A stretch of DNA of 32,000 nt from Pseudomonas aeruginosa (GTDB taxonomy: Bacteria > Pseudomonadota > Gammaproteobacteria > Pseudomonadales > Pseudomonadaceae): positions 6,270,001-6,302,000 of the forward strand of contig NZ_LN831024.1 of the NCBI RefSeq assembly GCF_001457615.1. The letters are read 5' to 3'. The notes below the pieces were generated by a model that was not told the DNA's origin, searched no databases, and saw only the letters and a program-made list of their open reading frames with translations. This document shows, piece after piece, positions 5,001 to 25,204 of this stretch (the first letter of the stretch is position 1; each line of letters starts with the position of its first letter). The position numbers and the translations under genes were made by a program.

Positions 5001-5148
5001 CTCGCCTGCATCTGGTGTCGCTATCGGACCCTTTGCCCTGAAGGATCGGCGGATTTCCGCTTATCCACTCTCCCGGTCGGCGGACTCCCGCTCGGCCAAG
5101 ACCACCCCGCTCCTCTTCCAACCCAGTCCCCACGCGGCTTTCCCGCGT

Positions 5149-5164
5149 TGGCACGGCACCTGCT
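5149..5164 (+). promoter_or_regulatory. Sigma-54 (RpoN) -24/-12 promoter
   Basis: TGGCACGGCACCTGCT compared with consensus TGGCACG-N4-TTGCW. GG and GC have exact spacing. It lies ~92 bp upstream of the MFS ATG at 5256. Confidence 0.75.
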
Positions 5165-5255
5165 ATCGAGCCATCCAATACGTCGCCCTCGCGATGTGCC
5201 GGTGTGCTGCGCCCTGATCAGCACATCCAAGACAACAACGAAAAGAGGAAACACG

Positions 5256-6563
5256 ATGGAAAGCGCCAACGCCATTTCCGCGTCTGCCCAGCCCCGCACC
5301 ACTTCGCAACGCATCAAGTCGATCTTCAGCGGTTCCGTCGGCAACCTGGTCGAGTGGTACGACTGGTACGTCTACGCCGCCTTCTCGCTGTACTTCGCAA
5401 AGGCATTCTTCCCCCAGGGCGACATGACCGCCCAACTGCTGAACACCGCAGCTATCTTCGCTGTGGGCTTCCTGATGCGCCCGATCGGTGGCTGGCTGAT
5501 GGGTATCTATGCCGACCGCAAGGGCCGCAAGGCGGCGTTGCTGGCCTCGGTGCTGCTGATGTGCTTTGGCTCGCTGATCATCGCCCTGACCCCCAGCTAT
5601 GAAACCATCGGCGTCGCCGCGCCGATCCTGCTGGTGGTCGCGCGCCTGCTCCAGGGCCTGTCGGTCGGCGGCGAATACGGCACCTCCGCCACCTACCTGA
5701 GCGAGATGGCGAACAAGGAACAGCGCGGGTTCTTCTCCAGCTTCCAGTACGTGACCCTGATTTCCGGCCAGCTCATCGCCCTGGCGGTGCTGATCGTCCT
5801 GCAACAGACCCTGACCGTAGAACAACTGGAAAGCTGGGGCTGGCGCGTCCCCTTCTTCATCGGCGCGCTGTGTGCAGTGGTGGCGATGTTCCTGCGTCGC
5901 GGCATGGAAGAGACCGAGTCCTTCTCGAAGAAGAAGGAAGAGCCGAAGGAAAGCCTGCTGCGCACCCTGCTGCGCCACCCGAAGGAAGTGCTGACCGTGG
6001 TCGGCCTGACCATGGGCGGCACCCTGGCCTTCTACACCTACACCACCTACATGCAGAAGTACCTGGTGAACACGGTAGGCATGAGCAAGACCGATTCGAC
6101 CATGATCTCGGCTGCCACCCTGTTCCTCTTCATGCTGCTGCAGCCCATCGTCGGCGCCCTCTCCGACAAGATCGGCCGGCGGCCGATCCTGATCGCCTTC
6201 GGCGTACTCGGCACCGTCTTCACCTACCCGATCCTCAGCACCCTGCACAGCGTCGACAGCTGGTGGGGAGCGTTCTTCCTGATCATGGCGGCGCTGGTGA
6301 TCGTCAGCGGCTACACCTCGATCAATGCGGTGGTGAAGGCCGAACTGTTCCCCACCGAGATCCGCGCCCTGGGCGTCGGCCTGCCGTATGCCCTGACCGT
6401 GTCGATCTTCGGCGGCACCGCCGAATACGTTGCCTTGTGGTTCAAGAGCGTCGGCCTGGAGAGCGGCTTCTACTGGTACGTCACCGCCTGTATCGCCTGC
6501 TCGCTGCTGGTCTATGTGTTCATGAAGGACACCCAGAAGCACTCGAAGATCACGACCGATTGA
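5256..6563 (+). CDS. MFS metabolite:H+ symporter (KgtP/PcaT-like alpha-ketoglutarate / C5-dicarboxylate transporter)
   Basis: ATG at 5256 is preceded by AAGAGGA. Product MESANAIS...GNLVEWYDWYVYAAFSLYFAKAFFP...ADRKGRK carries MHS-family signatures. Recalled as PA5530. Confidence 0.9.
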   Translation: MESANAISASAQPRTTSQRIKSIFSGSVGNLVEWYDWYVYAAFSLYFAKAFFPQGDMTAQLLNTAAIFAVGFLMRPIGGWLMGIYADRKGRKAALLASVLLMCFGSLIIALTPSYETIGVAAPILLVVARLLQGLSVGGEYGTSATYLSEMANKEQRGFFSSFQYVTLISGQLIALAVLIVLQQTLTVEQLESWGWRVPFFIGALCAVVAMFLRRGMEETESFSKKKEEPKESLLRTLLRHPKEVLTVVGLTMGGTLAFYTYTTYMQKYLVNTVGMSKTDSTMISAATLFLFMLLQPIVGALSDKIGRRPILIAFGVLGTVFTYPILSTLHSVDSWWGAFFLIMAALVIVSGYTSINAVVKAELFPTEIRALGVGLPYALTVSIFGGTAEYVALWFKSVGLESGFYWYVTACIACSLLVYVFMKDTQKHSKITTD

Positions 6564-6604: not shown

Positions 6605-6613
6605 TTATCCACA
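6605..6613 (+). other. Exact DnaA-box consensus 9-mer TTATCCACA (intergenic, overlapping the 5' base of the terminator stem after the MFS gene)
   Basis: Exact string match. Function as a DnaA site is a hypothesis. Confidence 0.5.
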
Positions 6614-6647
6614 GGACGGCGACCTTCGGGTCGCCGTCCTGCTTTTT
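6613..6647 (+). terminator. Rho-independent terminator after the MFS gene
   Basis: Perfect 12-bp stem AGGACGGCGACC/GGTCGCCGTCCT with a TTCG loop, followed by GCTTTTT. Confidence 0.85.
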
Positions 6648-6764
6648 GGCGCGGCAACCGATTCCCCCACACCCGCCGACTGTTGGTCTACGGCACGGCA
6701 TCCCGACCGGAGCCCTAGGGCGCGCAACGCCGGCGGCGTAATCATCCGGTGTCCCTGCGTTCCA

Positions 6765-6792
6765 CGGCGGATAACCGCAAGCGGTTATTCGC
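6765..6792. repeat. REP-like palindromic element, copy 2 (GGCGGATAACC-N6-GGTTATTCGCC)
   Basis: Same arms as the 4972-5000 element. A degenerate partial copy (~80% by eye) lies at 6851-6879. Confidence 0.7.
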
Positions 6793-6925
6793 CCTGCGGC
6801 TCGTCATTCCGGCGGGGCTGGAACCTTGGCGCGCAAACGCCGATCTCCTCGCGTTCCCACGGTGGAACAGCGCAAGGGGCCTGCCGTCCCCAGGCAGCGA
6901 AGCCCCGTCTGCGAGACCTACCGGG

Positions 6926-6954
6926 AATAAAAAAACCGCGCTCGAAGGCGCGGC
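6926..6954 (-). terminator. Rho-independent terminator of tonB1
   Basis: The minus strand reads GCCGCGC-CTTCGA-GCGCGG followed by TTTTTTTATT, 25 bp after the tonB1 stop. Confidence 0.8.
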
Positions 6955-6978
6955 TCTTTTCGTTGTCAGAGAACCGCC

Positions 6979-8010
6979 TCAGCGGCGCTTCTCGATCTTG
7001 AAGAAAAACATCTTGGTCGCCTGGCGGGCGACGATCTTGCCACCACTGACACGCGGCTCGAAACGCCACTTGGCCATGGCCTGGCGCACTTCGCGGTCGA
7101 ACATGCGCGACGGCACCGACTCCAGCACCTGGATGTCGTCAATGCGGCCATCGCTGGTGATGGTGAACAGCACCTTCACCCGGCCTTCGATACCCCGGGC
7201 CTGGGCCATCCGGGGATAGACCGGAGGATCCATGCGCAACGGCTTGATGTCACTGTCGTTGAGGCTGCCGCTGGGCAGGCCGGCCGGACCTTGCGAGCCG
7301 CTGGGCGCGGTCTGCGCGCCGGGCGTGCTCTGCCCGACGGTAGGTGCGGGCGGCGGCGGGGCGGCGCTGGACGGGCTGGGCTGACTGGATGCCTCCGTGC
7401 TCGGCTCGGGTTCCGGCTTGGGTTTGGGTTCCGGCTTCGGCTTGGCCTTCGGAATGGCGTTTTCCACCGGTTTGGGCTTGGGTTTCGGCTTGGGCTTGGG
7501 TTTTTCCACCGGCTTCGGCTTCGGCGGCTCCGGCTTGGGTTCCTCGATCTTCGGCGGCGTCGGCTCCGGCGCGGCAGCCGGCGGCTGCGGGGTCGGCTCG
7601 GCCTTCTTCTCGAGCTGGACGAAATTCACCTGCATGGTCTTCGGCAGTTCGCCGTGGCCAAGGTTGAGTTCGGCCGGGGTCGGCATCACCCACACCAGCG
7701 CACCGATGATCGCCACATGCATCGCCACCGCCGCGCCGGAGGACAACCACCAGCGCGACTTGGGCGGCTCGCCGGGGACGTCTTCGGGATCGCTGCCATG
7801 GGCGTAGGGGATCAGCACTTCCTCGACCGCCACTTCCTCGTCGCGGCGCGCACCGGAGCAGTCCACCACGCGCAGGTTGGGTTCTCCGCGCTGGGCATTC
7901 ACGCATGGCAGGGACTCGCTTTCGTCTCCCTGGGCGGGAGCGGTGGGGTGGTCTTCGGCGAGCGCGGCCAGCGAAAAACGGTCAGGCGACCGTGAAGGCT
8001 GTGGCGACAT
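6979..8010 (-). CDS. tonB1: TonB energy transducer with long N-terminal extension and Pro/Lys-rich spacer
   Basis: 343-codon ORF. TM segment around residues 87-108, (E/K)P repeats, and a C-terminal TonB domain (YPRMAQARGIEGRVKVLFTITSDGRIDDIQVLES). A Fur box lies upstream. Confidence 0.95.
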   Translation of the reverse strand: MSPQPSRSPDRFSLAALAEDHPTAPAQGDESESLPCVNAQRGEPNLRVVDCSGARRDEEVAVEEVLIPYAHGSDPEDVPGEPPKSRWWLSSGAAVAMHVAIIGALVWVMPTPAELNLGHGELPKTMQVNFVQLEKKAEPTPQPPAAAPEPTPPKIEEPKPEPPKPKPVEKPKPKPKPKPKPVENAIPKAKPKPEPKPKPEPEPSTEASSQPSPSSAAPPPPAPTVGQSTPGAQTAPSGSQGPAGLPSGSLNDSDIKPLRMDPPVYPRMAQARGIEGRVKVLFTITSDGRIDDIQVLESVPSRMFDREVRQAMAKWRFEPRVSGGKIVARQATKMFFFKIEKRR

Positions 8011-8056
8011 GAGGGCGACCTGCGGAGAAGTGAAAGGTAAGGAAGTAGAGTCTTCT

Positions 8057-8075
8057 GATAATTATTATCATTCAG
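8057..8075 (-). promoter_or_regulatory. Fur box upstream of tonB1
   Basis: GATAATTATTATCATTCAG matches 14/19 positions of GATAATGATAATCATTATC. It starts 47 bp upstream of the tonB1 ATG in an AT-rich spacer. Confidence 0.8.
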
Positions 8076-8102
8076 TCGCGTCCTCAGGGCAACCTTGGCG
8101 GA

Positions 8103-9071
8103 TCATTCCGCGACCATCCGACACGCCAGGAACGCCTCTTCGAGCGCCTCTTCATCCGCGCCTGCGGCGAGGATCAGTTCCAGCCGATTATCCCGCCGCC
8201 ACGAGGATTTGCCCCAGTTATCCACAAACGGCGCGGCATTCGCTGCATACCAACCGTCCGCGCAATGCAGCACCGCCTTGGCCCGCCGCAGTCCGGACAG
8301 ACGGTTCAGCCAGGCGTCCACTGCGGCCCGATCGAAACGCACCGACGGCGCCAGCCGCCAGCCGATGGCGAACTGGCCGTCCTGCTCGCGCACGGCGCGC
8401 AGCGGTCGCTCGGCGGGCAGCACCGTTCCCAACTGAGCAGGCGCCTCCGGCAGGGCCGCCCAGGTCGTCGCGCTACCTTCCCCGGCAACGCTGGTCGGCA
8501 GATCGCGCAATGCCAGGTGACCGCGCACGCTCCAGCGCAACGGCAGGACCGGCAGGCGCGCGCGCACAGCGCAGCGCTGCGTCGCGTCGAGCGTTTCGGA
8601 TTTGTTCAGCAGCAACATGCCGGCCGCTTCCAGCGCCTGTTCCTGTGCCTCCGGCAGCGGTTGGCCGGAGGCCAGCGCGGCGGCATCCAGCACCACTACC
8701 AGGGGTTGCAGGGCCAGGACGCCGGACCAGGGAGGAGCCTGCAGCTGTTTCCACAGCGCCAGCGGATGTCCCAACCCGGAGGGTTCGATGAACAGCCGGT
8801 CCGGCCGTGCCCGACGCAACAAGCGACCGAGCCCCACCTGGAACGGCACGCCATTGACGCAGCAGAGGCACCCGCCCGCCACCTCGCCGATGGCCACGCC
8901 GTCGACGTCCGTGGCCAGCAGCGCGGCATCCAGGCCGATCTCGCCGAACTCGTTGACCAGCACCGCCCAGCGCTCGCCCGCCGGCTTCTGCGCCAGCAGC
9001 GAGCGGATCAGGCTGGTCTTGCCGGCCCCCAGGGGGCCGCCGATCAGGTGTGTGGGTATCTCTCGAAGCAT
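8103..9071 (-). CDS. COG0523/CobW-family G3E GTPase (putative metallochaperone)
   Basis: 322-aa ORF with Walker A GPLGAGKTSLI, a CxCC motif (GGCLCCVNG) and a CobW C-terminal domain. Confidence 0.9.
   Translation of the reverse strand: MLREIPTHLIGGPLGAGKTSLIRSLLAQKPAGERWAVLVNEFGEIGLDAALLATDVDGVAIGEVAGGCLCCVNGVPFQVGLGRLLRRARPDRLFIEPSGLGHPLALWKQLQAPPWSGVLALQPLVVVLDAAALASGQPLPEAQEQALEAAGMLLLNKSETLDATQRCAVRARLPVLPLRWSVRGHLALRDLPTSVAGEGSATTWAALPEAPAQLGTVLPAERPLRAVREQDGQFAIGWRLAPSVRFDRAAVDAWLNRLSGLRRAKAVLHCADGWYAANAAPFVDNWGKSSWRRDNRLELILAAGADEEALEEAFLACRMVAE
8218..8226 (+). other. Exact DnaA-box 9-mer TTATCCACA (inside COG0523 gene 8103-9071)
   Basis: Exact string match. The coding strand reads TTT-GTG-GAT-AAC, using minor codons TTT and GAT. 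Confidence 0.5.
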
Positions 9072-9173
9072 CTGCGCAACCGGAATGTGAAAGCCTGTGG
9101 ATCAATGCGGTCCTTGCCTGCGGGGAGCCAGGCCCCGTGCTAGAGTCGCGCCCGTCTGCAATGGAGTCCTCGC

Positions 9174-9542
9174 ATGCGTCCGTTCCTGTTCTTCCTGTCC
9201 TGCCTGCCGGGCCTGGCCCTGGCCGAAGCCTGCATCGTCCATAGCCAGGCGAAGAATCTCGACGTGAAGGTCTGCCAGCAGAACCGCAGCATCCCGGCCA
9301 AGCTGTTCCACGAAGGCTTCTGCCAGCCACAACTGCAGGGCCAGAAGGTCGAGGTGACGTTCGCCGAGGAGTGTCCGACGGGCGCCTTCGGTGTCTGCCG
9401 CGACGCCAGGGTACCCAACGCGCCCTATCGGCAGGACATCTTCTACTACGGCATCGCGACCGACGCACGCTACCTGGAGCCGTTCTGCGCCAGCCAGAGC
9501 CAAGGTCGCTGGGAAGAGCCTAGCGCCGCGAAAAAGCCCTGA
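9174..9542 (+). CDS. Secreted Cys-rich hypothetical protein
   Basis: 122-aa ORF with signal peptide MRPFLFFLSCLPGLALA/EA and six Cys in the mature part. High GC3. Followed by a strong terminator. Confidence 0.7.
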   Translation: MRPFLFFLSCLPGLALAEACIVHSQAKNLDVKVCQQNRSIPAKLFHEGFCQPQLQGQKVEVTFAEECPTGAFGVCRDARVPNAPYRQDIFYYGIATDARYLEPFCASQSQGRWEEPSAAKKP

Positions 9543-9640
9543 GCGCGTCATCAGCCTGTCACAGCGTCAGGGCTAAATGGGAGTCGGGTACCTCAGCACC
9601 CTTCGTCCCCATCCCCAAGGTAGGACGACTTTTTGGTGAT

Positions 9641-9668
9641 AGGCCATCTGCGGATGGCCTTTTTTTAT
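9641..9668 (+). terminator. Rho-independent terminator
   Basis: AGGCCATC-TGCG-GATGGCCT followed by TTTTTTTATT. Confidence 0.85.
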
Positions 9669-9694
9669 TCCTCGAAAGACACTTGTCCACAGGC

Positions 9695-10336
9695 TCAGGC
9701 AAGCCAGTCCAGGGTCAACAGCAGGCGCGCCAGCCCAGGCTCCGCTCGCGGCGAGCGATGCACCAGCCCGGCACCTTCGTTACCCTCCCAGCGTTCGCCC
9801 TTGAGCAGCGCCACGTCGCCCGTGGACAAGCTGTGGATAAGCTGTTCATCGACAACTTCAGCCTGCGCTCCGCCAAGAAGCCGACGGTCCAGGCCGGACT
9901 CGTCCAGCCATTCGCTGGCGGCGCCCTGGTAGGTGGTGACCAGCCGCAGCGGCACGTGGTCGACGTGGAAACGCGGGCACATCGGTTTATCCAGAACGCG
10001 CAGGCGCAGGCCGATACGCCGCGCCCCGGTCAGGCAGGAGAAGGCCTCGACCAGCCAGCCCAGGTCGTCGAGGAAATCGGTTTGTCCCGGCAGTTGCTGC
10101 GCGTCGAGCAGGCCGTCCAAGACGGGTAGCCGTTCCTCTTCCATCTCCAGCGTCTGGCTCAGCGCCAGTCCCGGCCGGTTGCGCACCAGGGCGGCGGCGA
10201 AGTCGCGCAGCGCCGGGCTCAACCGGCGTGTCCAGACCGCCAGGTTGACGCCCTCGCGAAGCACCTCGGCCAGCACCTGGGGGTCGTCATCGAACGCCTG
10301 GCACGGCAACGGTTTTTCCTGCGGCAGTGCGCTCAT
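9695..10336 (-). CDS. DUF1826-like protein, translationally coupled to the upstream COG0523 gene
   Basis: 213-aa ORF. Its ATG overlaps the stop of the upstream gene (ATGA at 10333-10336). Contains CPRFHVDH ... GDVALLKG ... LVHRSP. Confidence 0.8.
9832..9840 (-). other. Exact DnaA-box 9-mer (TGTGGATAA on +) inside the DUF1826 gene, in tandem with a 2-mismatch box
   Basis: The minus strand reads CTT-ATC-CAC-AGC-TTG-TCC-ACG, i.e. TTATCCACA-gc-TTGTCCACG. Confidence 0.5.
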
Positions 10337-11535
10337 GCGGCGTGCCCCCAGTCCTCGAAGGGGTCGTCCAGGCCCTGCCAGCCGGGGATGCCCAGGTTCA
10401 TCTCGGCGTCATCCAGCAGGCAGGCGTCCAGGGCTGCGCGCAGGGCCGCGAAGTCCAGGTTCTGACCGATGAAAACCAGCTCCTGGCGACAGTCGCCGAC
10501 GCCTTCCTCCCAGTGCCGCATGATCGCCCGCAGGCCCTCTTCGTCCTGTGGCCACTGTCCGGTCGGCACGAAGCGCCACCAGCGGCCCGCCAGGCCGTAG
10601 CGCATCAGGCCGCCGGCCTGCGACCAGCTGCCGGCCTCGCGGGGCCGGCTGGCGAGCCAGAAGAAGCCCTTGGAGCGCAGCAGCCGCCCCTGCTTCAGCG
10701 GATTGTGCAGGAAGGCGTGGAAGCGCGCGGGGTGGAACGGCCGGCGCGCCCGGTAGGCCATGGAGGCGATGCCATATTCCTCGGTTTCCGGCAGGTGCTC
10801 GCCGCGCAGTTCCTTCAGCCAGCCCGGCGCGGACGCCGCGCGATCGAAATCGAAGCGACCGGTATCGAGGATCTTCGCCAGCGGCACCTGACCCATCACC
10901 ATCGGCAGGATCTCCGCCTCGGCATTGAGCTGGCGCAGGATCGCCAGCAGTTCCTCGCGCTGCTCGCTGGAGATCAGGTCGATCTTGCTGACCAGGATCA
11001 CGTCGGCGAATTCGACCTGGTCGATCAGCAGGTCGGTGATCGAGCGCTGATCCTCCTCACCGAGGGTTTCGCCACGACTGGCCAGGCTGGCGGCCTCCTG
11101 GTAGTCGCGGAGAAAATTCATCCCGTCGACCACCGTGACCATGGTATCCAGTCGCGCCACGTCGGACAGGCTGCGGTCCAGCTCGTCGCGGAAGGTGAAG
11201 GTCTCGGCCACCGGCATCGGTTCGGAAATCCCGGTGGACTCGATCAGCAGGTAGTCGAAGCGGCCTTCCCGGGCGAGACGGCCGACCTCTTCCAGCAGGT
11301 CTTCGCGCAGGGTGCAGCAGATACAGCCGTTGCTCATCTCCACCAGGCGTTCTTCAGCGCGGTTCAGGCTGACATCGCGCTGGACCTCGCTGCCATCGAT
11401 ATTGATTTCGCTCATATCGTTGACGATCACCGCAACCCGTCGGTTCTCGCGGTTCTTCAGCACATGGTTGAGCAGCGTGCTCTTGCCGGCGCCGAGAAAG
11501 CCGGACAGCACGGTGACAGGTAGGCGTTGGTTCAC
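10333..11535 (-). CDS. COG0523/CobW-family G3E GTPase (zinc metallochaperone-like)
   Basis: GTG at 11535 is preceded by GAAGAGG within ORF 10333..11760. Product (V)[24 protein letters not shown] has a Walker A motif, a [10 protein letters not shown] CxCC motif and a CobW_C domain. Lies 14 nt downstream of dksA2. Confidence 0.9.
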
Positions 11536-11549
11536 GGTTGGTAACCTCT

Positions 11550-11954
11550 TCAGTTGTGCCGCACGTGGCGTTCGCGCTTCTCCTGGCGCTCTTTCGCCTC
11601 GATGCAGAGGGTGGCGGTGGGACGCAACAGCAGGCGGCGCAGGCCGATCGGCTCGCCGGTTTCCTGGCACCAGCCGTAGTCGCCGCGGGCCAGGCGCTCC
11701 AGCGCTTCGTCGATCTTGTCGAGCAGCTTCTTCTCCCGCTCCAGCAGGCGAAGTTGCCATTGCCGCTGTTCCTCGCGGGAAGCCAGGTCGGCCTCGTCGC
11801 TGGGGCGTTCGAGATCGCGCAGCTCGCCGAATTCGCCTTCGATGCGCGCCTGAAGTTCCTGGCGCTGACGCAGCAGCAGGTCGCGGAAGAAGTCCTGCTG
11901 GGCTTCGTCCATGTAGGCAGCGTCGGGCTGGGCAAGCAGTTCCTGTTCGGTCAT
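11550..11954 (-). CDS. dksA2: DksA paralogue lacking the Cys4 zinc finger (Zn-independent DksA2)
   Basis: 134-aa ORF of the DksA/TraR family. The finger region reads [28 protein letters not shown], i.e. CxxT...CxxA in place of CxxC...CxxC. A Zur box lies 25 nt upstream. Confidence 0.95.
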
Positions 11955-11979
11955 GGGCTGAACCTGGGAAATTTAAAAC

Positions 11980-11992
11980 GTTATACTATAAC
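11980..11992. promoter_or_regulatory. Zur box (perfect palindrome GTTATAcTATAAC) in the divergent dksA2 / secreted-protein promoter region
   Basis: Matches the GTTATAnTATAAC core of the gamma-proteobacterial Zur operator. Embedded in the AT-rich stretch AAAACGTTATACTATAACAATTAA. Confidence 0.9.
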
Positions 11993-12066
11993 AATTAACA
12001 CCACAATCGATGGCCCGCCAATCGCCTTCCGGCTACCCTGGGCCCACGTCATCCCGGGATCCACCG

Positions 12067-12483
12067 ATGCGCCGCGTCCTCCGCCTTTACTGCCTGGCCC
12101 TCCTGCTGCTCGCTCCGGCGGCACAGGCGCAGGGCTTTCTTCCCGGCACCCGCCCGGCGGAATGCGCTTACCTGCGCACCGTTCTGGCCTGCATGGATCG
12201 GCTGGGCAACCACTACAGCGTCGCCACCGGCGGCAACGACACCTGGCTGCGCGGCTACGACGCGGCGAGCGGACGACGCTGGGCCCAGACCAATACGCGC
12301 TACGGGCGCCTGACCTTCTTCAGCGGCATCGCCAGCGATGGGGAAATCTGGGTCGGCCTCAGCCGCAACATCGGCTGGACCAGCATCAGCCGCCTGAGCA
12401 GTTCATCGGGCCAGCGCCAACGCCTGACCTGCGGGCGGGTCAGCGGCTGCAGCGAAGGCCCTAGCCGGGAGGCTGCGCGCTGA
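12067..12483 (+). CDS. Secreted hypothetical protein (divergent from dksA2)
   Basis: ATG at 12067 inside ORF 12010..12483 gives signal peptide MRRVLRLYCLALLLLAPAAQA/QG. High GC3. Its 3' end overlaps the amiA 3' end by 23 bp. Confidence 0.65.
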   Translation: MRRVLRLYCLALLLLAPAAQAQGFLPGTRPAECAYLRTVLACMDRLGNHYSVATGGNDTWLRGYDAASGRRWAQTNTRYGRLTFFSGIASDGEIWVGLSRNIGWTSISRLSSSSGQRQRLTCGRVSGCSEGPSREAAR

Positions 12484-13654
12484 GCGCCGCCAGGTAGCTG
12501 CCGGCGGGAGGGCGTTGCCGGAAGTAGCCCTGCACGCCAGCGAAGATCGCCTCGGCCAGGCGCTGGCGATGGCGTTCGTCCATCAACCGGCGACAATCGC
12601 CGCGATTCGAGATGAAGCCGGTCTCCACCAGGATCGAAGGGATGTCCGGCGACTTGAGCACGGCGAAGCCGGCCTGCTCGACACGCTTCTGGTGCAGCGC
12701 GGTGACGTCCGACAACTGGCCGAGAACGCTGTGGCCGAGGTCCAGGCTGCTGGCGATGGTCGAACTCAGGGCCATGTCGAGGATCACCCCGGCGAGTACC
12801 TTGTCGCGGCCCTGTAGCGGCAGGTTGCCGCTGTTGCCGATCAGGTCGGCGCCGTTCTCGCGCTCGGCCATCCAGCGCGACATGGTCGAGCTGGCGCCAT
12901 GCTCGGAGAGGGCATATACCGACGCGCCGGAGGCGGTCAGTCGCGGCGCCGCGTCGGCGTGCACCGAAACGAACATGTCGGCGTTGTAGCGCCGGGCCAC
13001 TTCCGGCCGCTTGCGCAGCGGGACGAACACATCGCCGTTGCGCACCAGGCGCGCCTTGAAGCCTTTCTCACGGTCGATCCGCCGCGCCAGCAGGCGGGCG
13101 ATGGCCAGCGCCACGTCCTTTTCGCGCTCGCCCTTGCTACCGACCGCGCCGGGGTCCTTGCCGCCATGGCCGGCATCGACCACCACGAGGATGTCGCGGC
13201 CCGTCGAGGGTAGCGGGCGGGCCAGCGCCAGCATTGGCTCGGGGGGCGCCGCCAGCGCCTGTGGATATAGGTCCAGGACCAGGCGATGGCCCTTTCCCGC
13301 CTGCGGTTCCAGGGCGAAGCTGCGCGGCCTGACCGCTTGGCGCAGATCGAGGACGATGCGCGTCCCGCCGCCACCCAGTTGGCCACTGCGTATGGCGCGC
13401 ACGGGGCCGTCCAGCGGTAGCTCGGAGAGCGTTGCGAGCAATTGCGCGTCGGGCAGGTCGAGGATCAACCGCTCGGGGGCCTGCAGGGAAAAGGTTCGAT
13501 AACGCGGCGGGCCGTCCAGTTCCAGCACCAGGCGCCAGCTTTCCGAGGAATTCCAGGCCCGGGCCTGGCGGATTCGTACATTGGCGCTGGCGGCCAGGAA
13601 CGGCTGGAGGGCCAGGCCGGCGAGCAGGCTTTGCAGGAGACGACGGCGCTTCAT
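12461..13654 (-). CDS. amiA: N-acetylmuramoyl-L-alanine amidase (Amidase_3) with twin-arginine signal
   Basis: The ATG at 13654 gives MKRRRLLQSLLAGLALQPFLAASA (Tat-like); the ORF-track start at 13675 is a TTG. Catalytic domain VVVDAGHGGKDPGAVG...FVSVHAD. Confidence 0.9.
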   Translation of the reverse strand: MKRRRLLQSLLAGLALQPFLAASANVRIRQARAWNSSESWRLVLELDGPPRYRTFSLQAPERLILDLPDAQLLATLSELPLDGPVRAIRSGQLGGGGTRIVLDLRQAVRPRSFALEPQAGKGHRLVLDLYPQALAAPPEPMLALARPLPSTGRDILVVVDAGHGGKDPGAVGSKGEREKDVALAIARLLARRIDREKGFKARLVRNGDVFVPLRKRPEVARRYNADMFVSVHADAAPRLTASGASVYALSEHGASSTMSRWMAERENGADLIGNSGNLPLQGRDKVLAGVILDMALSSTIASSLDLGHSVLGQLSDVTALHQKRVEQAGFAVLKSPDIPSILVETGFISNRGDCRRLMDERHRQRLAEAIFAGVQGYFRQRPPAGSYLAALSAQPPG

Positions 13655-13695
13655 CGACGAAATACCCGATTGCAAGGGTCGGCATTAGCTAATAC

Positions 13696-13708
13696 GTTAT
13701 ATTATAAC
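13696..13708. promoter_or_regulatory. Zur box (perfect palindrome GTTATAtTATAAC) in the divergent amiA / folE2 promoter region
   Basis: Second exact GTTATAnTATAAC. It ends 45 nt upstream of the folE2 ATG and starts 41 nt upstream of the amiA ATG. Confidence 0.9.
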
Positions 13709-13753
13709 ATTCAAACCATTTCCAGGCCTTGCCTGCCCTTCTTCGAGTTCTCC

Positions 13754-14650
13754 ATGAATGCCTTGACGCTTCCCGATATCGCCCGCCAGACCACCACCGC
13801 CGATCTTCCCCTGGACTGGGTCGGCATGCAGGGCATCGCCCTTCCCGTGCAGATCGGCGGGCAGAGGGTCGCCGCCGAAGCCGATGCCGGTGTCAGCCTG
13901 GACGACCCGCAGGCCCGCGGCATCCATATGTCGCGCCTCTACCTGGCGCTGGCCGAACTGGAACAGGGCGAGCTGGACCTTTCCTGCCTGCGCGCCGTCC
14001 TGCAACGCTTCCTCGCCAGCCACGCCGGCCTGTCGCGTCGCGCCTACCTGCGCCTACGCCTCGCGCCGCTGCTGCGGCGTCCGGCGCTGGTCAGCCCGCT
14101 GAGCGGCTGGAAACGTTATCCACTGGTGCTGGACACGCGCCTGGAAGGCGATGACTTCCAGGCCGAAGTCCATCTCGAGCTGACCTACTCCTCAACCTGC
14201 CCCTGTTCGGCGGCACTGGCCCGGCAATTGATCCAGGAGCGCTTCGACCAGGACTTCGCCGGACAGCCGCTCGATCATGCCAGCGTGCTTGCGTGGCTCG
14301 GCAGCAGCGCCGGCATCGTCGCCACCCCGCACAGCCAGCGCAGCAGCGCGCACCTGCGCATCGGCCTGGCGGAAGACTGCATCGGACTGCCCCTGGAAGA
14401 GCTGGCGGATCTCGGCGAAAGCGCCCTCGGCACCGCGGTGCAGACTGCGGTGAAACGCGCCGACGAGCAGGCCTTCGCCCTCGCCAACGGGCAGAACCTG
14501 ATGTTCTGCGAGGACGCGGTGCGCCGGCTGCACCGCGCCCTGCAGGGCTATCCACAGGCGAGCCGGTTCTCCATACGGGTCGTCCATGCGGAAAGCCTGC
14601 ATGCCCATGACGCCGTCGCCGAAAGCCATTGGCAGCGAGGTGCAGCATGA
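13754..14650 (+). CDS. folE2: GTP cyclohydrolase IB (FolE2)
   Basis: ATG at 13754 inside ORF 13442..14650. FolE2/MptA-like sequence (HMSRLY..., TYSSTCPCSAALAR..., SQRS..). 298 aa. Confidence 0.9.
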   Translation: MNALTLPDIARQTTTADLPLDWVGMQGIALPVQIGGQRVAAEADAGVSLDDPQARGIHMSRLYLALAELEQGELDLSCLRAVLQRFLASHAGLSRRAYLRLRLAPLLRRPALVSPLSGWKRYPLVLDTRLEGDDFQAEVHLELTYSSTCPCSAALARQLIQERFDQDFAGQPLDHASVLAWLGSSAGIVATPHSQRSSAHLRIGLAEDCIGLPLEELADLGESALGTAVQTAVKRADEQAFALANGQNLMFCEDAVRRLHRALQGYPQASRFSIRVVHAESLHAHDAVAESHWQRGAA

Positions 14651-15207
14651 TCCGCAAGAATCCCTCCGGCGACCTGCCGGTGATCGACGAATCGGCCTAT
14701 GTGGACAAGACCGCGATCATCTGCGGCAAGGTGATCATCCAGGCCAACGTCTTCGTCGGTCCCTACGCAGTGATCCGTGCCGACGAAGTCGACGCCGACG
14801 GCGGCATGCAACCGATCGTGATCGGCGCCAACTCGAACATCCAGGACGGCGTGGTGATCCATTCCAAGTCGGGTGCCGCGGTGACCATCGGCGAGCACAG
14901 CTCCATCGCCCACCGCTCCATCGTCCACGGTCCTTGCGAAGTCGGCGACCGGGTCTTCATCGGCTTCAACAGCGTGCTGTTCAACTGCCGGGTCGGCGAT
15001 GGCTGCGTGGTCCGCCACAACGCGGTGGTCGACGGCTGCGACCTGCCAGCGGGTTTCTACGTACCGTCCACCGAGCGCATCGGTCCGCGCACCGACCTGG
15101 CGAGCATGCCGCGGGTCAGCGTTTCCGCCAGCGAGTTCTCGGAAGACGTGGCGCGCACCAACGTCGACCTGGTACGCGGCTACAAGTCGCTGCAGAACGA
15201 GTTCTGA
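14647..15207 (+). CDS. Gamma-class carbonic anhydrase-like left-handed beta-helix protein
   Basis: ATG at 14647 overlaps the folE2 stop (ATGA) and is preceded by GAGGTG. Hexapeptide repeats and His ligand pattern (VIHS...IAHRSIVHG). Confidence 0.85.
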   Translation: MIRKNPSGDLPVIDESAYVDKTAIICGKVIIQANVFVGPYAVIRADEVDADGGMQPIVIGANSNIQDGVVIHSKSGAAVTIGEHSSIAHRSIVHGPCEVGDRVFIGFNSVLFNCRVGDGCVVRHNAVVDGCDLPAGFYVPSTERIGPRTDLASMPRVSVSASEFSEDVARTNVDLVRGYKSLQNEF

Positions 15208-15209
15208 AC

Positions 15210-16547
15210 ATGCAAAGCCTGCTGATCCGCAATGCCCGGATGGTCAACGAGGGGCAGGTACGCGAAGGCGATCTGCTGGTCCGCCACGGTCGCATCGAAC
15301 GCATCGCCGGCTGCCTGGAAAACTGCGGCGCCAGCCGGGAGATCGATGCCGCCGGACGCTACCTGCTGCCGGGAATGATCGACGACCAGGTGCACTTCCG
15401 CGAGCCGGGTTATCCACAGAAGGGCTCGATCGCCAGCGAATCCCGCGCCGCCGTGGCGGGCGGCATCACCAGTTTCATGGACATGCCCAATACCCGCCCG
15501 GCGACGCTGAGCCTCGAAGCGCTGGCGGAAAAGAAGCGCCTCGCCGCCGCCCATAGCGTGGCCAACTTCGGTTTCCACTTCGGCGTCAGCCGCGACAACC
15601 TCGACACCGTGGCCGCCCTCGATCCACGCGAGGTCGCCGCGGTGAAGGTGTTCATGGGCGCCTCCACCGGCGACATGCTGGTGGACGACCTGCCGACCCT
15701 GGAGCGCCTGTTCGCCAGCGTTCCGACCCTGCTGCTGAGCCATTGCGAAGACACGCCGCGGATCGAAGCCAACCTGGCGCGCTGGCGACAACGCTTCGGT
15801 GAACGTATTCCGGCAGCCGCCCACCCGCGCATTCGCGACGCCGAGGCTTGCTACCGTTCCACCGCCCTGGCGGTGGAACTGGCGCAACGACATGGCACGC
15901 TGCTGCATGTCCTGCACTTATCCACAGCGCGTGAACTGGCCCTGTTCGAGGACAAGCCGCTGTGCCAGAAACGCATCACCGCGGAAGTCTGCGTCCACCA
16001 TCTGCTGTTCGACGACAGCGACTACGCCCGCCTCGGCCATCTGCTCAAGTGCAACCCGGCGATCAAGAGCCGCGAGGACCGCGACGCCCTGCGCAGGGCG
16101 CTGGCCGGCAACCGCCTGGACGTGATCGGCACCGACCACGCGCCGCACGCCTGGGCCGAGAAGCAGCAGGCTTATCCACAGGCGCCGGCCGGCCTGCCAC
16201 TGGTCCAGCATGCGTTGCCGGCACTCCTGGAGCTGGTCCGCGAAGGCTGGCTGTCGCTTGCCACCCTGGTGGCGAAGACCAGCCACCGGGTCGCCGAACT
16301 GTTCGCCATCGCCGATCGCGGTTTCCTCCGCGAAGGTTACTGGGCCGACCTGGTGCTGGTCAGCGAACTGGAGCACCCGGCGCTGGCCAGCGCCATGCCG
16401 CTGCTGTCGCGCTGCAACTGGACGCCGTTCCGCCACCGGGCATTCCACCATCGGATCGATACCACCATCGTCTCCGGGCAACTCGCCTGGCACGCGGGAC
16501 GCCTGTCCGACGATTGCCAGGGACTGCCCCTGCGGTTTTCCCGCTGA
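15210..16547 (+). CDS. pyrC2: Dihydroorotase paralogue (amidohydrolase superfamily)
   Basis: ATG lies 2 nt after the preceding stop. 445 aa: MQSLLIRNARMVNEG..., DDQVHFREPG, VIGTDHAPH motifs. Recalled as PA5541. Confidence 0.9.
   Translation: MQSLLIRNARMVNEGQVREGDLLVRHGRIERIAGCLENCGASREIDAAGRYLLPGMIDDQVHFREPGYPQKGSIASESRAAVAGGITSFMDMPNTRPATLSLEALAEKKRLAAAHSVANFGFHFGVSRDNLDTVAALDPREVAAVKVFMGASTGDMLVDDLPTLERLFASVPTLLLSHCEDTPRIEANLARWRQRFGERIPAAAHPRIRDAEACYRSTALAVELAQRHGTLLHVLHLSTARELALFEDKPLCQKRITAEVCVHHLLFDDSDYARLGHLLKCNPAIKSREDRDALRRALAGNRLDVIGTDHAPHAWAEKQQAYPQAPAGLPLVQHALPALLELVREGWLSLATLVAKTSHRVAELFAIADRGFLREGYWADLVLVSELEHPALASAMPLLSRCNWTPFRHRAFHHRIDTTIVSGQLAWHAGRLSDDCQGLPLRFSR
15410..15418 (+). 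other. Exact DnaA-box 9-mer TTATCCACA inside pyrC2
   Basis: Encoded as GGT-TAT-CCA-CAG (G-Y-P-Q) using minor codons. Confidence 0.5.
15918..15926 (+). other. Exact DnaA-box 9-mer TTATCCACA inside pyrC2
   Basis: Encoded as TTA-TCC-ACA (L-S-T). TTA and ACA are rare codons in high-GC Pseudomonas. Confidence 0.5.
16172..16180 (+). other. Exact DnaA-box 9-mer TTATCCACA inside pyrC2
   Basis: Encoded as GCT-TAT-CCA-CAG (A-Y-P-Q) using minor codons. Confidence 0.5.
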
Positions 16548-16591
16548 AGTCTTGTCCACAGCCTGCTGTGGATATCCGTTAGCCCACGGCC

Positions 16592-17836
16592 CTAGCGCAG
16601 GGCTTTCACCGCCGCGCCAAGGAAGGCATAGGTCTCCTCCTCGCGATCGTCCATCTCCGGCTTCGGCCAGGCGCTCCAGACCACCGCCACGATCTTCTCC
16701 TTGCGGTTGATGTAGAGGTACTGGCCGAAGATGCCCTGGGCTTCGAAGGCCCCGCCGTCATGCTCGGGCAGGGCCTTGGCGCCCACCGGGAAGGTCCACC
16801 ACTGGTAGCCGTAGCCGAGCGCGTATTCGCCATCGTAGAGCTTGCCCGGGGCCAGGTGGGAAGTAGCCTCGACGCGACTGGCACGATCGACCCAACCTTC
16901 GGGGAGGATACGTTCGCCATCGATCACCCCGTCCTCGAGGACGAACTGGCCGAAGCGGCCATAGTCGCGCAGGGTCGCGCTCAAGCCGCTGCTGCCGATC
17001 TCTTGCCCGGCCGGCGATTCCAGTTGCCAGAAGCCGTCGCTCTCCATGCCCATTCGCGCCCAGATCCGCTCGGACAGGTAGTCGCTCACCGGAATGCGGG
17101 TCGCCGCGTGCAGCAGCTCGCTCTGCAGGTGCGACTCGCCGGTGCTGTAGGTGAAGTGGGTACCGCTCGGGTACTGCCGCGGCAGGCTCGCCAGCAGCCG
17201 CAGGATGCCACCGGGACGTTCGGCGAGCTGGGCGTCGAACATCTGCCGGCGGTCGGACTTCGGATCGCGATAGGTCTCGTTCCAGCGGACCCCGGAACTC
17301 ATCTGCAGGACCTGCTCCACCGTCACCCCCTGGTAGGCGGAGCCGGCCAGGCTCGGCAGGTACTTGTCCACAGGCTGGTCGAGAGCCAGCAGGCCCTGCT
17401 GCACGGCGGCGCCCACCAGGGTCGAGGAGATCGACTTGACCACCGAGAACGAGGTCCAGCGCGTGCGTTCGTCGTTGCCCAGGCCGTAGCGCTCCAGGGC
17501 GACCTTGCCATCCTTGAGGACCAGCACCCCGCCAACGCGGTTGCGCCGCATGAAATCGTCGACGCCGTATTCCTCGCCGCCGATCCGGTAGCGCGGCGCG
17601 ATGGCCACACCCGCCGGCAGCGGACGGACCTTGGTCCCCTTGTGGATAACCCGGGTCGGATAGACCTTGTCCATGTTCCGGTAGGTGTCCGGCTGGTATT
17701 CCGGGATCAGTTCATAGAGATCGGCGGCACGGCCGATCCGCGGGTTTTCCACAGCCGCGTCGGCGCCGGCCGAGCCGCTTGCCGAGACGAACAGTGCCAG
17801 CAGGGCCGGCCGGAAGACTGATATACAGCTACGCAT
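16592..17836 (-). CDS. Beta-lactamase-fold serine hydrolase (class C-like; recalled as PA5542/PIB-1)
   Basis: ATG at 17836 is preceded by AAGGAAAA within ORF 16592..17950. Signal peptide MRSCISVFRPALLALFVSASGSAGA. S-x-x-K motif SVVK. Confidence 0.85.
   Translation of the reverse strand: MRSCISVFRPALLALFVSASGSAGADAAVENPRIGRAADLYELIPEYQPDTYRNMDKVYPTRVIHKGTKVRPLPAGVAIAPRYRIGGEEYGVDDFMRRNRVGGVLVLKDGKVALERYGLGNDERTRWTSFSVVKSISSTLVGAAVQQGLLALDQPVDKYLPSLAGSAYQGVTVEQVLQMSSGVRWNETYRDPKSDRRQMFDAQLAERPGGILRLLASLPRQYPSGTHFTYSTGESHLQSELLHAATRIPVSDYLSERIWARMGMESDGFWQLESPAGQEIGSSGLSATLRDYGRFGQFVLEDGVIDGERILPEGWVDRASRVEATSHLAPGKLYDGEYALGYGYQWWTFPVGAKALPEHDGGAFEAQGIFGQYLYINRKEKIVAVVWSAWPKPEMDDREEETYAFLGAAVKALR
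17641..17649 (-). other. Exact DnaA-box 9-mer (TGTGGATAA on +) inside the serine hydrolase gene
   Basis: The minus strand reads GTT-ATC-CAC-AAG (V-I-H-K). Confidence 0.5.
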
Positions 17837-17907
17837 GGACGTTTTCCTTATGACCGGAAGCAGCTCCGGCTTCGTCGTTTTTATGGATGTGGACTGGCGT
17901 CTCAGGG

Positions 17908-17916
17908 TTATCCACA
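17908..17916 (+). other. Exact DnaA-box 9-mer TTATCCACA in the 86-bp spacer between the DUF1850 gene and the serine hydrolase gene
   Basis: Exact string match, starting 72 bp upstream of the hydrolase ATG. Confidence 0.5.
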
Positions 17917-17922
17917 GGACGT

Positions 17923-18321
17923 TCAGTCGCTCGGGTCCCGTATCGGACACGCCCAGAGTTCGACCGCCGGGCGCTCACGGTCCGGCGGACCGATCCAGCG
18001 CGCCAGCGCATCGCAGCGCCCCTGACGGCAGATCCGGTAGTCGCCGGCCTCCGGTGTGCGCCCCAGCCGCAACGGTTGCAACGGCGGCACCCCACGGTGG
18101 TAATGCCAGGCGCCGTCACGCAGCACGGCGCCCTCGGGAATCTCCATCCCCGCCCCGCTGCCCCGCACCCGGGCCTCTTCCAGCAGCAGGCCGCGCTCAC
18201 TCAGGCGATAGTCTTCTTCCCAGAGCACCTTCTCGACCGTGTGTTGCCAGGCCAGGGTGAACGACTGCAGCGGCAGCGTCGCCCAGACGCTGCCGGCCAT
18301 GCCCAGACACAGCGCGATCAC
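17923..18321 (-). CDS. DUF1850-like protein associated with the TAXI-TRAP transporter
   Basis: Only the 3' 133 codons of ORF 17923..20082 look coding. The GTG at 18321 overlaps the permease stop (GTGA). An alternative ATG lies at 18300. Confidence 0.7.
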   Translation of the reverse strand: MIALCLGMAGSVWATLPLQSFTLAWQHTVEKVLWEEDYRLSERGLLLEEARVRGSGAGMEIPEGAVLRDGAWHYHRGVPPLQPLRLGRTPEAGDYRICRQGRCDALARWIGPPDRERPAVELWACPIRDPSD

Positions 18322-20342: not shown

Positions 20343-20416
20343 GCATCGACTCCCTACAGCCGGAAACGCGGGGAACCCGGTCCGCCGCACGGACCGGGGC
20401 TACGGAGAAACGGGCC

Positions 20417-21376
20417 TCACTCGGGCAGTACGCCCTTCTCCTTGTAGAAGCGCTCGGCGCCGGGATGCAGCGGAATCGGCAGGTTCTTCGCCGCCTTGTC
20501 CAGGGCGATGTCCTTGGCGGCAGCATGGGCGGTGACCAGGCGCGGCAGGTTGTCGAACATCAGCTTGGTCATCTGGTAGGCCAGCTCGTCGCTGACCCCG
20601 GAGTGGCTGACCAGGATATTGTCGATCGCCACCGTCGGCACGTCCTGCTCCTGGCCATCGTAGGTGCCGGCGGGAATGCTCGCGGCGTGGTAGGCCGGGC
20701 TGTCGATCTTCGCCACCACGTCCGCCGGGATCGCGACGAAGGTGATCGGCATGGTCGAGGCCAGGTCGCGGATGGCCGCCATGCCCAGGCCGGAGGATTG
20801 CAGCGTAGCGTCGAGCTGGCGGTTCTTGATCAGCTCCACCGACTCGGCGTAGGGCAGGTACTCCACCTTGCCCATGTCCTCGTAGCTCAGGCCGGCGGCC
20901 TTGAAGATCGCCCGGGCGTTCAGCTCGGTACCGCTCTTGGGCGCGCCCACCGAAATGCGCTTGCCTTTCAGGTCGGCCAGGGTCTTGATGCCCGAGGCTT
21001 GGCTGGCCACTACCTGGATATAGTTCGGATAGGTATTGCCGATAGCCCGCAGCTTCTTCAACGGCGCCTTGAAGCCGGCGTCGGCGACCCCGTTCCAGGC
21101 GTCGGCGACCGAGTCGCCCAGCGCCAGCGCCAGTTCTCCACGCCCGGCCTGCAACAGGTTGAGGTTCTCGACCGAAGCCTTGGTGGCCTGCACCGAGGTT
21201 TTCGCGCCCTGGATATCGTGCCCGTAGATCTGCGAGAGGCCGACCCCTATGGGGTAATAGACCCCGCTGGTGCCGCCGGTGAGGATATTGATGAAGGTCG
21301 GCGCGGCAAAGACCGCGGTACTGAAGGTCACCGTTGCGGCAAGCGTGAAAAGACCGAAGCGTCTGCTCAGCGACAT
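20417..21376 (-). CDS. TAXI-family TRAP transporter solute-binding protein
   Basis: 319-aa ORF with strong RBS AGGAGA and a signal peptide, followed by INILTGGTSGVYYPIGV, typical of TAXI SBPs. Confidence 0.9.
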   Translation of the reverse strand: MSLSRRFGLFTLAATVTFSTAVFAAPTFINILTGGTSGVYYPIGVGLSQIYGHDIQGAKTSVQATKASVENLNLLQAGRGELALALGDSVADAWNGVADAGFKAPLKKLRAIGNTYPNYIQVVASQASGIKTLADLKGKRISVGAPKSGTELNARAIFKAAGLSYEDMGKVEYLPYAESVELIKNRQLDATLQSSGLGMAAIRDLASTMPITFVAIPADVVAKIDSPAYHAASIPAGTYDGQEQDVPTVAIDNILVSHSGVSDELAYQMTKLMFDNLPRLVTAHAAAKDIALDKAAKNLPIPLHPGAERFYKEKGVLPE

Positions 21377-25150: not shown

Positions 25151-25158
25151 CGGCGAGC

Positions 25159-25183: not shown

Positions 25184-25204
25184 TTCTCGGGCACGCGGCC
25201 GGCG

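Follow-up and report, generated by a model that had tools for sequence, protein, structure and literature searches.

Consensus DnaA boxes selected at the DNA level form a 30-kb zone near the origin of Pseudomonas aeruginosa

A DnaA-box-rich zone left of oriC

The 32,000-nucleotide stretch of the Pseudomonas aeruginosa chromosome analysed here (contig NZ_LN831024.1, positions 6,270,001 to 6,302,000; hereafter the window) runs from a gene for a GntR-family regulator to atpD and holds, around tonB, folE2 and a pyrC2-like gene, a dense group of copies of the 9-mer TTATCCACA, the textbook high-affinity binding site, or box, of the initiator protein DnaA. A motif scan returned eight exact copies, at 6605 (+), 8218 (+), 9832 (−), 15410 (+), 15918 (+), 16172 (+), 17641 (−) and 17908 (+), and none elsewhere in the window, exactly as an earlier sequence-only reading of this DNA had listed them; six of the eight lie inside coding sequences. 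Single-mismatch sites number 12 rather than the eleven counted in that reading, which had missed TTGTCCACA at 14700 (−); it was right that nearly all of them fall between 6605 and 17916, although the count there is 11 of the 12 and not ten. No exact or one-mismatch box occurs between 17917 and 32000. Flanking DNA from other P. aeruginosa genomes shows that these sites occupy the right two-fifths of a larger zone, about 30 kb long, which lies in the left replichore ~28–58 kb from the replication origin oriC. The principal sites are listed below; L081 denotes a sister species (Logan assembly ERR4785195) whose DNA is 89.5% identical over 19,032 bp and whose COG0523 protein is 82% identical.

6605–17916, no strand: DnaA-box-rich zone, in-window part, with 8 exact and 11 one-mismatch sites
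5061–5069, + strand: one-mismatch site TTATCCACT, without conservation in L081
6605–6613, + strand: exact box, TTATCCACAGG, intergenic, between the convergent 3′ ends of the MFS transporter gene and tonB
8218–8226, + strand: exact box in the COG0523/CobW-family gene, codons TTT GTG GAT AAC
9683–9691, + strand: one-mismatch site TTGTCCACAGG, directly past the stop of the DUF1826 gene
9821–9840, − strand: tandem pair in the DUF1826 gene, the exact box at 9832–9840 (codons CAG CTT ATC CAC AGC) with TTGTCCACG 2 bp on
13260–13268, − strand: one-mismatch site ATATCCACAGG in the amidase gene, codons CTA TAT CCA CAG (LYPQ)
14116–14124, + strand: one-mismatch site TTATCCACT in folE2, codons CGT TAT CCA CTG
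14548–14556, + strand: one-mismatch site CTATCCACAGG in folE2, codons GGC TAT CCA CAG (GYPQ)
15410–15418, + strand: exact box in pyrC2, codons GGT TAT CCA CAG (GYPQ)
15918–15926, + strand: exact box in pyrC2, codons TTA TCC ACA (LST)
16172–16180, + strand: exact box in pyrC2, codons GCT TAT CCA CAG (AYPQ)
16552–16575, no strand: inverted one-mismatch pair, TTGTCCACAG cctg CTGTGGATAT, in the spacer between pyrC2 and the beta-lactamase-family gene, whose stops converge
17364–17372, + strand: one-mismatch site TTGTCCACAGG in the beta-lactamase-family gene, identical with its flanks in L081
17641–17649, − strand: exact box in the beta-lactamase-family gene, codons GTT ATC CAC AAG
17745–17753, + strand: TTTTCCACAG, which fits the relaxed consensus TTWTNCACA, identical in L081
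17908–17916, + strand: exact box, TTATCCACAGG, intergenic, between the stop of the DUF1850 gene (17923) and the start of the beta-lactamase-family gene (17836)

The excess of these sites is far beyond chance, as the sequence-only reading had estimated by hand. Dinucleotide shuffles of the window gave a mean of 0.04 exact boxes (maximum 2, with 3 never reached in 100 shuffles) against the 8 observed, and sites with at most one mismatch numbered 20 against 1.68 expected (shuffle maximum 5). When all 1680 permutations of the 9-mer were counted as a composition control, the DnaA box ranked first with its 8 occurrences against a mean of 0.04, and the runner-up, with 3, overlapped box-like sequence; the box is also the most frequent among all 9-mers of the window with no more than three G/C. 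Because G+C content is uniform across the window (0.60–0.69), an AT-rich island does not explain the excess. The continuation CCACAG is present in 14 of the 20 sites, with exact ones tending to TTATCCACAGG, which bears out the earlier remark that most sites extend to TCCACAG. Four one-mismatch sites, 5061 (+), 9096 (−), 9987 (+) and 14700 (−), are probably chance occurrences, since they are not kept in L081 and ~1.7 one-mismatch sites are expected. For the cluster as a whole, a chance or compositional origin has in its favour the general caveat that one window was picked from a genome scan; set against this are the shuffles, the clean permuted-motif control, a codon resampling that falls far short of the observed counts and the independent recurrence of the excess in a species 10% diverged, while a multiple-testing correction for 200 windows is negligible against such odds, and we consider this explanation effectively refuted. 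A significant local excess of consensus boxes outside oriC is the first property of a non-origin DnaA-box cluster, a class that takes in the B. subtilis clusters, a Streptomyces cluster and the boxes near the E. coli origin.

The second such property is an origin-proximal, early-replicated position. Through its AtpD the window was placed on a PAO1-type chromosome, CP047067.1 (genome of 6,264,417 bp), where window position x corresponds to x + 6,217,919. The in-window boxes thereby lie 28.6–39.9 kb to the left of the rpmH/dnaA origin (oriC), in agreement with the few tens of kilobases proposed from the sequence, and the whole zone reaches to ~58 kb; oriCII, upstream of gidA, is at ~41.7 kb in window coordinates. 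Cumulative GC skew of the + strand is negative, which agrees with a position on the lagging-strand side of the left replichore. To the left, flanks were taken from P. aeruginosa genomes carrying the window's GntR protein and then, one step further, PdxY. These contain seven more exact boxes, 1.8–11.7 kb beyond the window end: five at −4985 to −1831, in an unannotated open reading frame (ORF) and in short-chain dehydrogenase, glutamine-synthetase-like and aminotransferase genes, and two at −11672 and −11457 inside a transpeptidase-family gene. The limits of 6605–17916 assigned in the sequence-only reading are thus too narrow on the left side. No exact box was found in the 8.9 kb to the left of −11672, and rightward of 17917 none was found until gidA, ~22 kb away, as read from other P. 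aeruginosa strains (gidB/gidA at ~39.2–40.9 kb), the one-mismatch boxes of oriCII coming next.

The resulting 62.3-kb composite holds 17 exact boxes and 22 TTWTNCACA sites, exact consensus thus accounting for 17 of the 22, and the zone proper (−11672 to 17916, 29.6 kb) holds 15 and 18, respectively. Exact boxes in the zone are distributed 9 on the + and 6 on the − strand, and this absence of polarity is more in keeping with a protein that binds duplex DNA than with a polar motif. A total of 129 TTWTNCACA sites has been published for the whole genome of PAO1161 (PMC13438810, Wawrzyniak et al.). The zone would amount to ~14% of them in 0.47% of the chromosome; the shuffle expectation of 0.45 per 32 kb corresponds to ~88 per genome, which, set against the published 129, places the rest of the chromosome near chance level. 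For exact boxes the chance expectation, extrapolated to the whole genome at 66% G+C, is ~8. Within the window the sites are densest between 15410 and 17916, with 9 sites of at most one mismatch in 2.5 kb, and 15410–16575 alone has 3 exact and 2 one-mismatch sites in 1.17 kb, the whole selected zone spanning 30 kb. The closest trio of exact boxes spans 770 bp, and the only close pairs are 9821/9832 and 16552/16567. The latter pair could form a 9-bp hairpin with a minimum free energy of −19 kcal/mol, which is marginal against shuffles (z −1.9) and lacks a U tract.

The boxes cut across the gene order of the window. Gene models were obtained from family scans and ORF analysis, with the Pfam assignments of DUF1826, DUF1850 and DksA taken from syntenic loci; the COG0523 protein shares 99% identity with a P. 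aeruginosa protein.

242–922, + strand: GntR-family regulator
2226–4940, + strand: CPA2 antiporter
5148–6563, + strand: MFS transporter
6979–8010, − strand: tonB
8103–9071, − strand: COG0523/CobW-family GTPase, short
9174–9542, + strand: small ORF
9695–10336, − strand: DUF1826 gene
10333–11535, − strand: zigA
11550–11954, − strand: dksA-like gene
12461–13675, − strand: amidase (AmiA/AmiC-family)
13754–14650, + strand: folE2
14629–15207, + strand: gamma-carbonic anhydrase
15210–16547, + strand: pyrC2-like dihydroorotase
16592–17836, − strand: beta-lactamase-family hydrolase (serine hydrolase)
17923–18321, − strand: DUF1850 gene
18318–32000, mixed strands: TRAP/TAXI transporter, cfaB, glmS, glmR, glmU, atpC and atpD

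The sequence-only reading had framed the cluster by the tonB1/Zur-regulon genes. This association is incidental: the same zone runs 18 kb further left into unrelated genes, where half of it lies, and we rejected a Zur-regulon link of the boxes. The recognisable metal-regulator operators are separate AT-rich palindromes. Two Zur-type palindromes (GTTATAnTATAAC), distinct from the DnaA boxes, are present near 11985 and 13700, as ACGTTATACTATAACAAT (in the 60-mer 11951–12010) and ACGTTATATTATAACATT (13660–13719), in the divergent promoter regions of the dksA-like and PA5537-like genes and of the amidase gene and folE2; a Fur-like box, GATAATTATTATCATTC, likewise distinct, lies near 8055 (60-mer 8017–8076), directly upstream of tonB. 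The glmR upstream region and these operator regions provide the lowest-GC 60-mers of the window (33–38% GC). A search for promoter and terminator motifs around 16.4–18.1 kb found nothing linked to the boxes.

Alternatively, DnaA might use the boxes as operators and regulate transcription nearby, with tonB, the Zur-regulated operons and the beta-lactamase-family and transpeptidase-family genes as its targets. The box at 17908 sits in the 86-bp gap upstream of the beta-lactamase-family gene, and that at 8218 is ~200 bp upstream of the tonB start codon, a place at which the P. fluorescens group conserves three boxes; moreover, P. aeruginosa gidA is activated by DnaA through the oriCII boxes (PMC13438810). 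However, six of the eight in-window exact boxes are deep in coding sequence and in both orientations, the boxes are spread across at least six unrelated transcription units over 30 kb, the 6605 box and the 16552–16575 pair lie between convergent 3′ ends, and the operators that can be recognised are other sequences, so that we give this explanation a slim chance.

Selection on the DNA motif and its lineage restriction

The third property, maintenance by selection on the DNA sequence, was found by several approaches. With the proteins held fixed and codons redrawn from the locus's own usage (300 runs), the twelve genes of the interval yielded 0.12 exact boxes (maximum 1) and 2.0 one-mismatch sites, against the 6 and 7 observed, and the fourteen genes outside the interval contain 0 exact and 0 one-mismatch sites. 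The boxes make use of codons that are rare among their synonyms, namely CCA (5% of Pro), GGT (12% of Gly), TAT (22% of Tyr), GCT (5% of Ala) and ACA (4% of Thr), and the only TTA leucine codon in the window's 26 gene models (frequency 0.001) is the first codon of a pyrC2 box, at 15918–15920. The codon usage described in the sequence-only reading thus proved correct on checking, and so did its conclusion that selection acts on the DNA motif, given the resampling above and the codon and residue changes that follow.

Codon-level alignment of up to 22 orthologues revealed that the motif has also altered proteins. Four box sites, two in pyrC2 and one each in folE2 and the amidase gene, encode Tyr-Pro-Gln as TAT CCA CAG where other species have APH/APD, YAQ/YRE, SDA or TPR, indicating that several boxes needed amino-acid changes at variable positions. 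At 15410 the outgroups encode PGAPHK or PGAPDK, making Tyr and Gln specific to the box-bearing lineages, and at 16172 they encode YAQ, YRE or YSR; both boxes are exact in L081. The 13260 site, for which outgroup residues are TPR, VPR or RRQ, is exact in L081 (CTT TAT CCA CAG) and in 4 of 10 strains, and the 14548 site, whose residues are not conserved in outgroups, is likewise exact in L081, with an exact copy also in nine of ten other P. aeruginosa strains. The 14116 site is identical in L081 and reads TAC CCG or TAC CCC in most outgroups. At 15918, L081 has TTG TCC ACC and the outgroups CTG ACC ACC. Clean cases of a DNA-binding motif shaping protein sequence, such as Tyr-Pro-Gln at four sites in three enzymes, are of interest in their own right.

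In L081, 10 exact boxes were found in 21 kb. Five of the eight exact boxes of the window are exact there too (6605, 8218, 15410, 16172 and 17641), three of its one-mismatch sites are exact in L081 (9683, 13260 and 14548) and three are identical in both (14116, 17364 and 17745); the left-flank box at −1831 is shared as well. A/T-ending third-codon positions turn over fast in the P. aeruginosa genome, and those inside boxes are conserved in L081 at 21 of 26 (81%), compared with 381 of 793 (48%) outside (Fisher p = 0.001). Retention is accompanied by turnover. Thus, 6605 is identical with its flanks in L081, and the position aligned to 9683 is an exact TTATCCACAGG there; at the 9821/9832 pair the exact box is lost in L081 and the neighbouring site reads TTGTCCACA. 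The 17908 copy is degenerate in L081, with an exact box in opposite orientation ~26 bp away, and the spacer between pyrC2 and the hydrolase gene has diverged, yet there too it carries two one-mismatch boxes. From the codon resampling, the rare codons and amino-acid replacements, the conservation of A/T sites and this retention with turnover, we conclude that the boxes are selected as a DNA motif and not as protein.

Across ten P. aeruginosa strains the eight boxes are all retained, with the single exception of 9832 in one strain (6605 and 17641, for example, were found in 10 of 10); a further strain, L087, also lacks 9832, the loss in L087 and L100 being due to a single-nucleotide polymorphism. 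The window strain is at the low end, given the exact copies that other strains have at 14548 and 13260. The zone is restricted to P. aeruginosa and this one sister species. Other Pseudomonas and gammaproteobacterial loci have hardly any exact boxes outside one conserved spot, and no box was found in pyrC2 orthologues of other Pseudomonas groups (at most 74% identity), both among the matches listed. Conservation at synonymous sites, which the sequence-only reading had put forward as a check, is thus seen in L081 at the A/T third positions, whereas the zone itself is missing from distant Pseudomonas.

The conserved spot belongs to the P. fluorescens group. In ten species of that group (L004, L001, L002, L005, L006, L007, L008, L010, L013 and L039), the 3′ part of the COG0523/CobW-family gene directly upstream of tonB carries a trio of boxes in the orientations +, − and + at offsets of 0, 37 and 234 bp (in L004, gene 605–1579, at 723+, 760− and 957+). 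The trio forms islands of conservation in a variable region, including an invariant rare GTT codon, and might in itself constitute a compact site of DnaA titration or DnaA-dependent regulation. Strict orthology of the 8218 box with a box of this trio was considered and rejected: in the protein alignment the two are ~3 codons apart, and species in between lack the box. Descent from one ancestral box is therefore not established, and the two may be convergent.

DnaA as the probable reader of the motif, and comparison with known loci

The sites match real DnaA boxes beyond the 9-mer. The G that follows is shared with the Escherichia coli oriC boxes R1 (TTATCCACAGGG) and R4 (TTATCCACAGTA), and most box-like sites of the oriCII/gidA region also continue as ...ACAG. 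Electrophoretic mobility-shift assays have shown that purified P. aeruginosa DnaA binds boxes 6–10 of oriCII (PMC13438810). Flanks are unrelated among the sites beyond ~11 bp, so the sites are not copies of a repeat. We also observed that gidA itself (in L084) has, besides the upstream oriCII boxes, two exact boxes (942 and 2047) and several one-mismatch sites (810, 2164 and 2568), corresponding to the extra boxes 11–14 predicted by Wawrzyniak et al. 2026 (PMC13438810). It is slightly odd that the zone is limited to P. aeruginosa and one sister species if the motif is read by DnaA, since both DnaA and its box are universal; this would suit another, lineage-specific reader, or a non-selective origin as a repeat element, by gene conversion or at a mutational hotspot. 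Such explanations are nonetheless very improbable, because the 9-mer equals the DnaA consensus letter for letter and shares its following G with R1 and R4, because the unrelated flanks exclude repeat or mobile-element copies and because the sites arose in different frames and strands by independent point changes.

We compared the zone with loci known to bind DnaA outside the origin. E. coli datA lowers initiation potential; it packs four to five boxes into ~1 kb, lies ~470 kb from oriC, and its stimulation of DnaA-ATP hydrolysis needs a site for IHF and a defined arrangement of boxes. The E. coli DARS loci reactivate DnaA and have a tight core of three boxes with IHF and Fis sites. The zone resembles both in being a non-origin locus with several high-affinity boxes (those of DARS1 and DARS2 serving to modulate DnaA), and its 15.4–17.9 kb sub-cluster comes close to datA in box density. 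In contrast to datA, it covers 30 kb at ~28–58 kb from oriC and has no IHF consensus (WATCAANNNNTTR), for which no match exists in the 32 kb, at the level of the consensus. Nor does it have the DARS type of core with an IHF/Fis region, the closest three exact boxes being 770 bp apart. On these features, together with the dispersed and mostly intragenic layout, the analogy to datA or DARS suggested in the sequence-only reading fails, and homology to either is ruled out by the missing IHF consensus and tight three-box core. No AT-rich unwinding element adjoins any box group, as one would in oriC or a cryptic origin.

Bacillus subtilis has several separate groups of consensus boxes outside but near oriC (DnaA-box clusters, DBCs; Ishikawa 2007, Okumura 2012), which reportedly restrain initiation by holding DnaA, as proposed or shown. 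The DBCs are compact and mostly intergenic, with demonstrated DnaA binding and deletion phenotypes, whereas the P. aeruginosa zone is known here from sequence and is dispersed, with about one box per 2 kb over 30 kb, mostly within genes. In E. coli and Salmonella, DnaA boxes are over-represented near oriC relative to uniform and permuted-motif nulls, a pattern that in E. coli is taken to promote titration shortly after initiation (Olivi et al. 2025, PMC12371093). The E. coli enrichment is an excess of about two standard deviations over ~10% of the chromosome with relaxed motifs (PMC12371093), unlike the zone that we describe, where the perfect consensus is ~30-fold in excess, confined to a single arm and to 0.5% of a GC-rich chromosome. 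Closest in organism, chromosome arm, box type and ...ACAG flank are the boxes of P. aeruginosa oriCII and the gidA promoter (Jiang 2006; PMC13438810); these are grouped compactly in intergenic DNA, in an origin-like structure for which a promoter role has been demonstrated, and the zone, which PMC13438810 does not analyse, begins ~22 kb further from the origin. The supplement of that 2026 paper lists all 129 TTWTNCACA sites, and one line of it notes the enrichment of boxes on the left arm (PMC13438810). The sequence-only reading was aware of no such locus being described here; this is nearly true, holding for the zone itself but not for the left-arm enrichment, mentioned in that paper in passing.

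That DnaA binds the zone for another purpose would draw on the same sequence evidence for DnaA binding as titration does. Such a purpose might be a change of nucleotide state (datA-like hydrolysis or DARS-like reactivation) or the organisation or anchoring of the origin for segregation; the 9 sites in 2.5 kb at 15410–17916 approach the density of datA, and the zone adjoins the parAB/oriCII region. Set against it, the IHF consensus is absent from the 32 kb, no three-box core exists within ~100 bp (the nearest exact trio taking up 770 bp) and a structural role has no support of any kind. We regard these roles as unlikely, with a small but real chance of being right.

A titration sink is the role that we favour, with moderate confidence: a dispersed, mostly intragenic, origin-proximal DnaA-binding zone. 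Perfect high-affinity boxes have accumulated here under DNA-level selection, through rare codons and replacements at variable protein positions, and each box is expected to bind the ATP and ADP forms of DnaA alike, as consensus boxes of the R1/R4 type do. Replication of the zone would come right after initiation and at once double the high-affinity sinks close to the origin, whereupon free DnaA would drop and re-initiation would be discouraged. The same initiator-titration logic has been applied to E. coli datA, to boxes near the origin and to the origin-proximal DnaA-box clusters of B. subtilis. With chance boxes scarce at 66% G+C (~8 per genome), 15 extra sites would constitute a large share of all high-affinity sites in the genome. 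Titration fits the bias towards perfect consensus, the lack of spacing and orientation rules, the nearness to oriC and the scarcity of chance boxes, and it also fits redundancy with turnover, as predicted when selection on each site is weak. By sitting in mostly silent genes, as these probably are, the boxes would minimise both the eviction of DnaA by RNA polymerase and the cost of rare codons.

Several observations weigh against this proposal. The boxes are dispersed, at ~1 per 2 kb, a spacing at which DnaA is not expected to oligomerise cooperatively as it does at datA, DARS or oriC, apart from a few close pairs. As whole 9-mers the boxes are retained in L081 (5 of 8) no better than the 46% background, the test at A/T synonymous sites being the one with power for conservation relative to L081. 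The uniqueness of the zone rests on the published genome total and the chance expectation. In the syntenic regions of P. panipatensis and P. knackmussii we found 0 and 1 exact box, respectively, and if the zone does titrate DnaA, this is a lineage-specific solution. A literature search for DnaA chromatin immunoprecipitation sequencing or DnaA-box clusters in Pseudomonas found none, and it turned up neither immunoprecipitation nor mobility-shift results on the sites of the zone.

A bolder version, which we hold to be a long shot, makes the zone the chief store of high-affinity DnaA sites in a GC-rich genome with almost none elsewhere. It would have arisen de novo in the P. aeruginosa lineage, through motif-driven recoding of dispensable, normally silent genes (the Zur-repressed operons and beta-lactamase-like genes). 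Since transcription through a box evicts the bound protein, derepression, for example on zinc starvation, would then release DnaA and couple metal or nutrient status to initiation.

In kind, the locus belongs with non-origin DnaA-box clusters and origin-proximal enrichment, and what is unusual is its architecture, 30 kb long, mostly intragenic and built by recoding. The case from sequence (the excess, its location, the selection on DNA, the restriction to one lineage and the match to real DnaA boxes) is strong, and from it we infer occupancy by DnaA and a negative effect on initiation. Control of initiation is poorly understood outside E. coli and B. subtilis, and we know of no datA, DARS or DBC equivalent established in Pseudomonas. 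The zone offers a small and concrete target, 15 synonymously recodable sites, for a direct test of initiator titration in a GC-rich pathogen, where removing a few boxes should matter because background boxes are so rare.

Strain variation around the zone

Several differences between strains were seen in and beside the zone. In one strain (L094), ISL3-family transposase insertions are present at 3245–4447, between the small ORF and the DUF1826 gene and thus within the box zone, and again near glmS, at 20929–21338. In L085 a Tn7-like element (TnsA, TnsB, TnsC and TniQ/TnsD; 16711–21377) directly follows glmS at the classical attTn7 position, where the window strain has an MFS gene. The segment from a HAD-family gene to glmS is variable (22956–25150 in the window, 18834–21338 in L092, L098 and L101), some strains carrying a cyclodipeptide synthase gene and two 2OG-Fe(II) oxygenase genes and others, including PAO1-type strains, an MFS transporter gene. 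Finally, in the PAO1-type L093 (3002–3862) the COG0523/CobW-family product is called at 286 amino acids instead of the usual 322, and the boxes on its left side are displaced by 7 bp, which suggests a small indel or frameshift.

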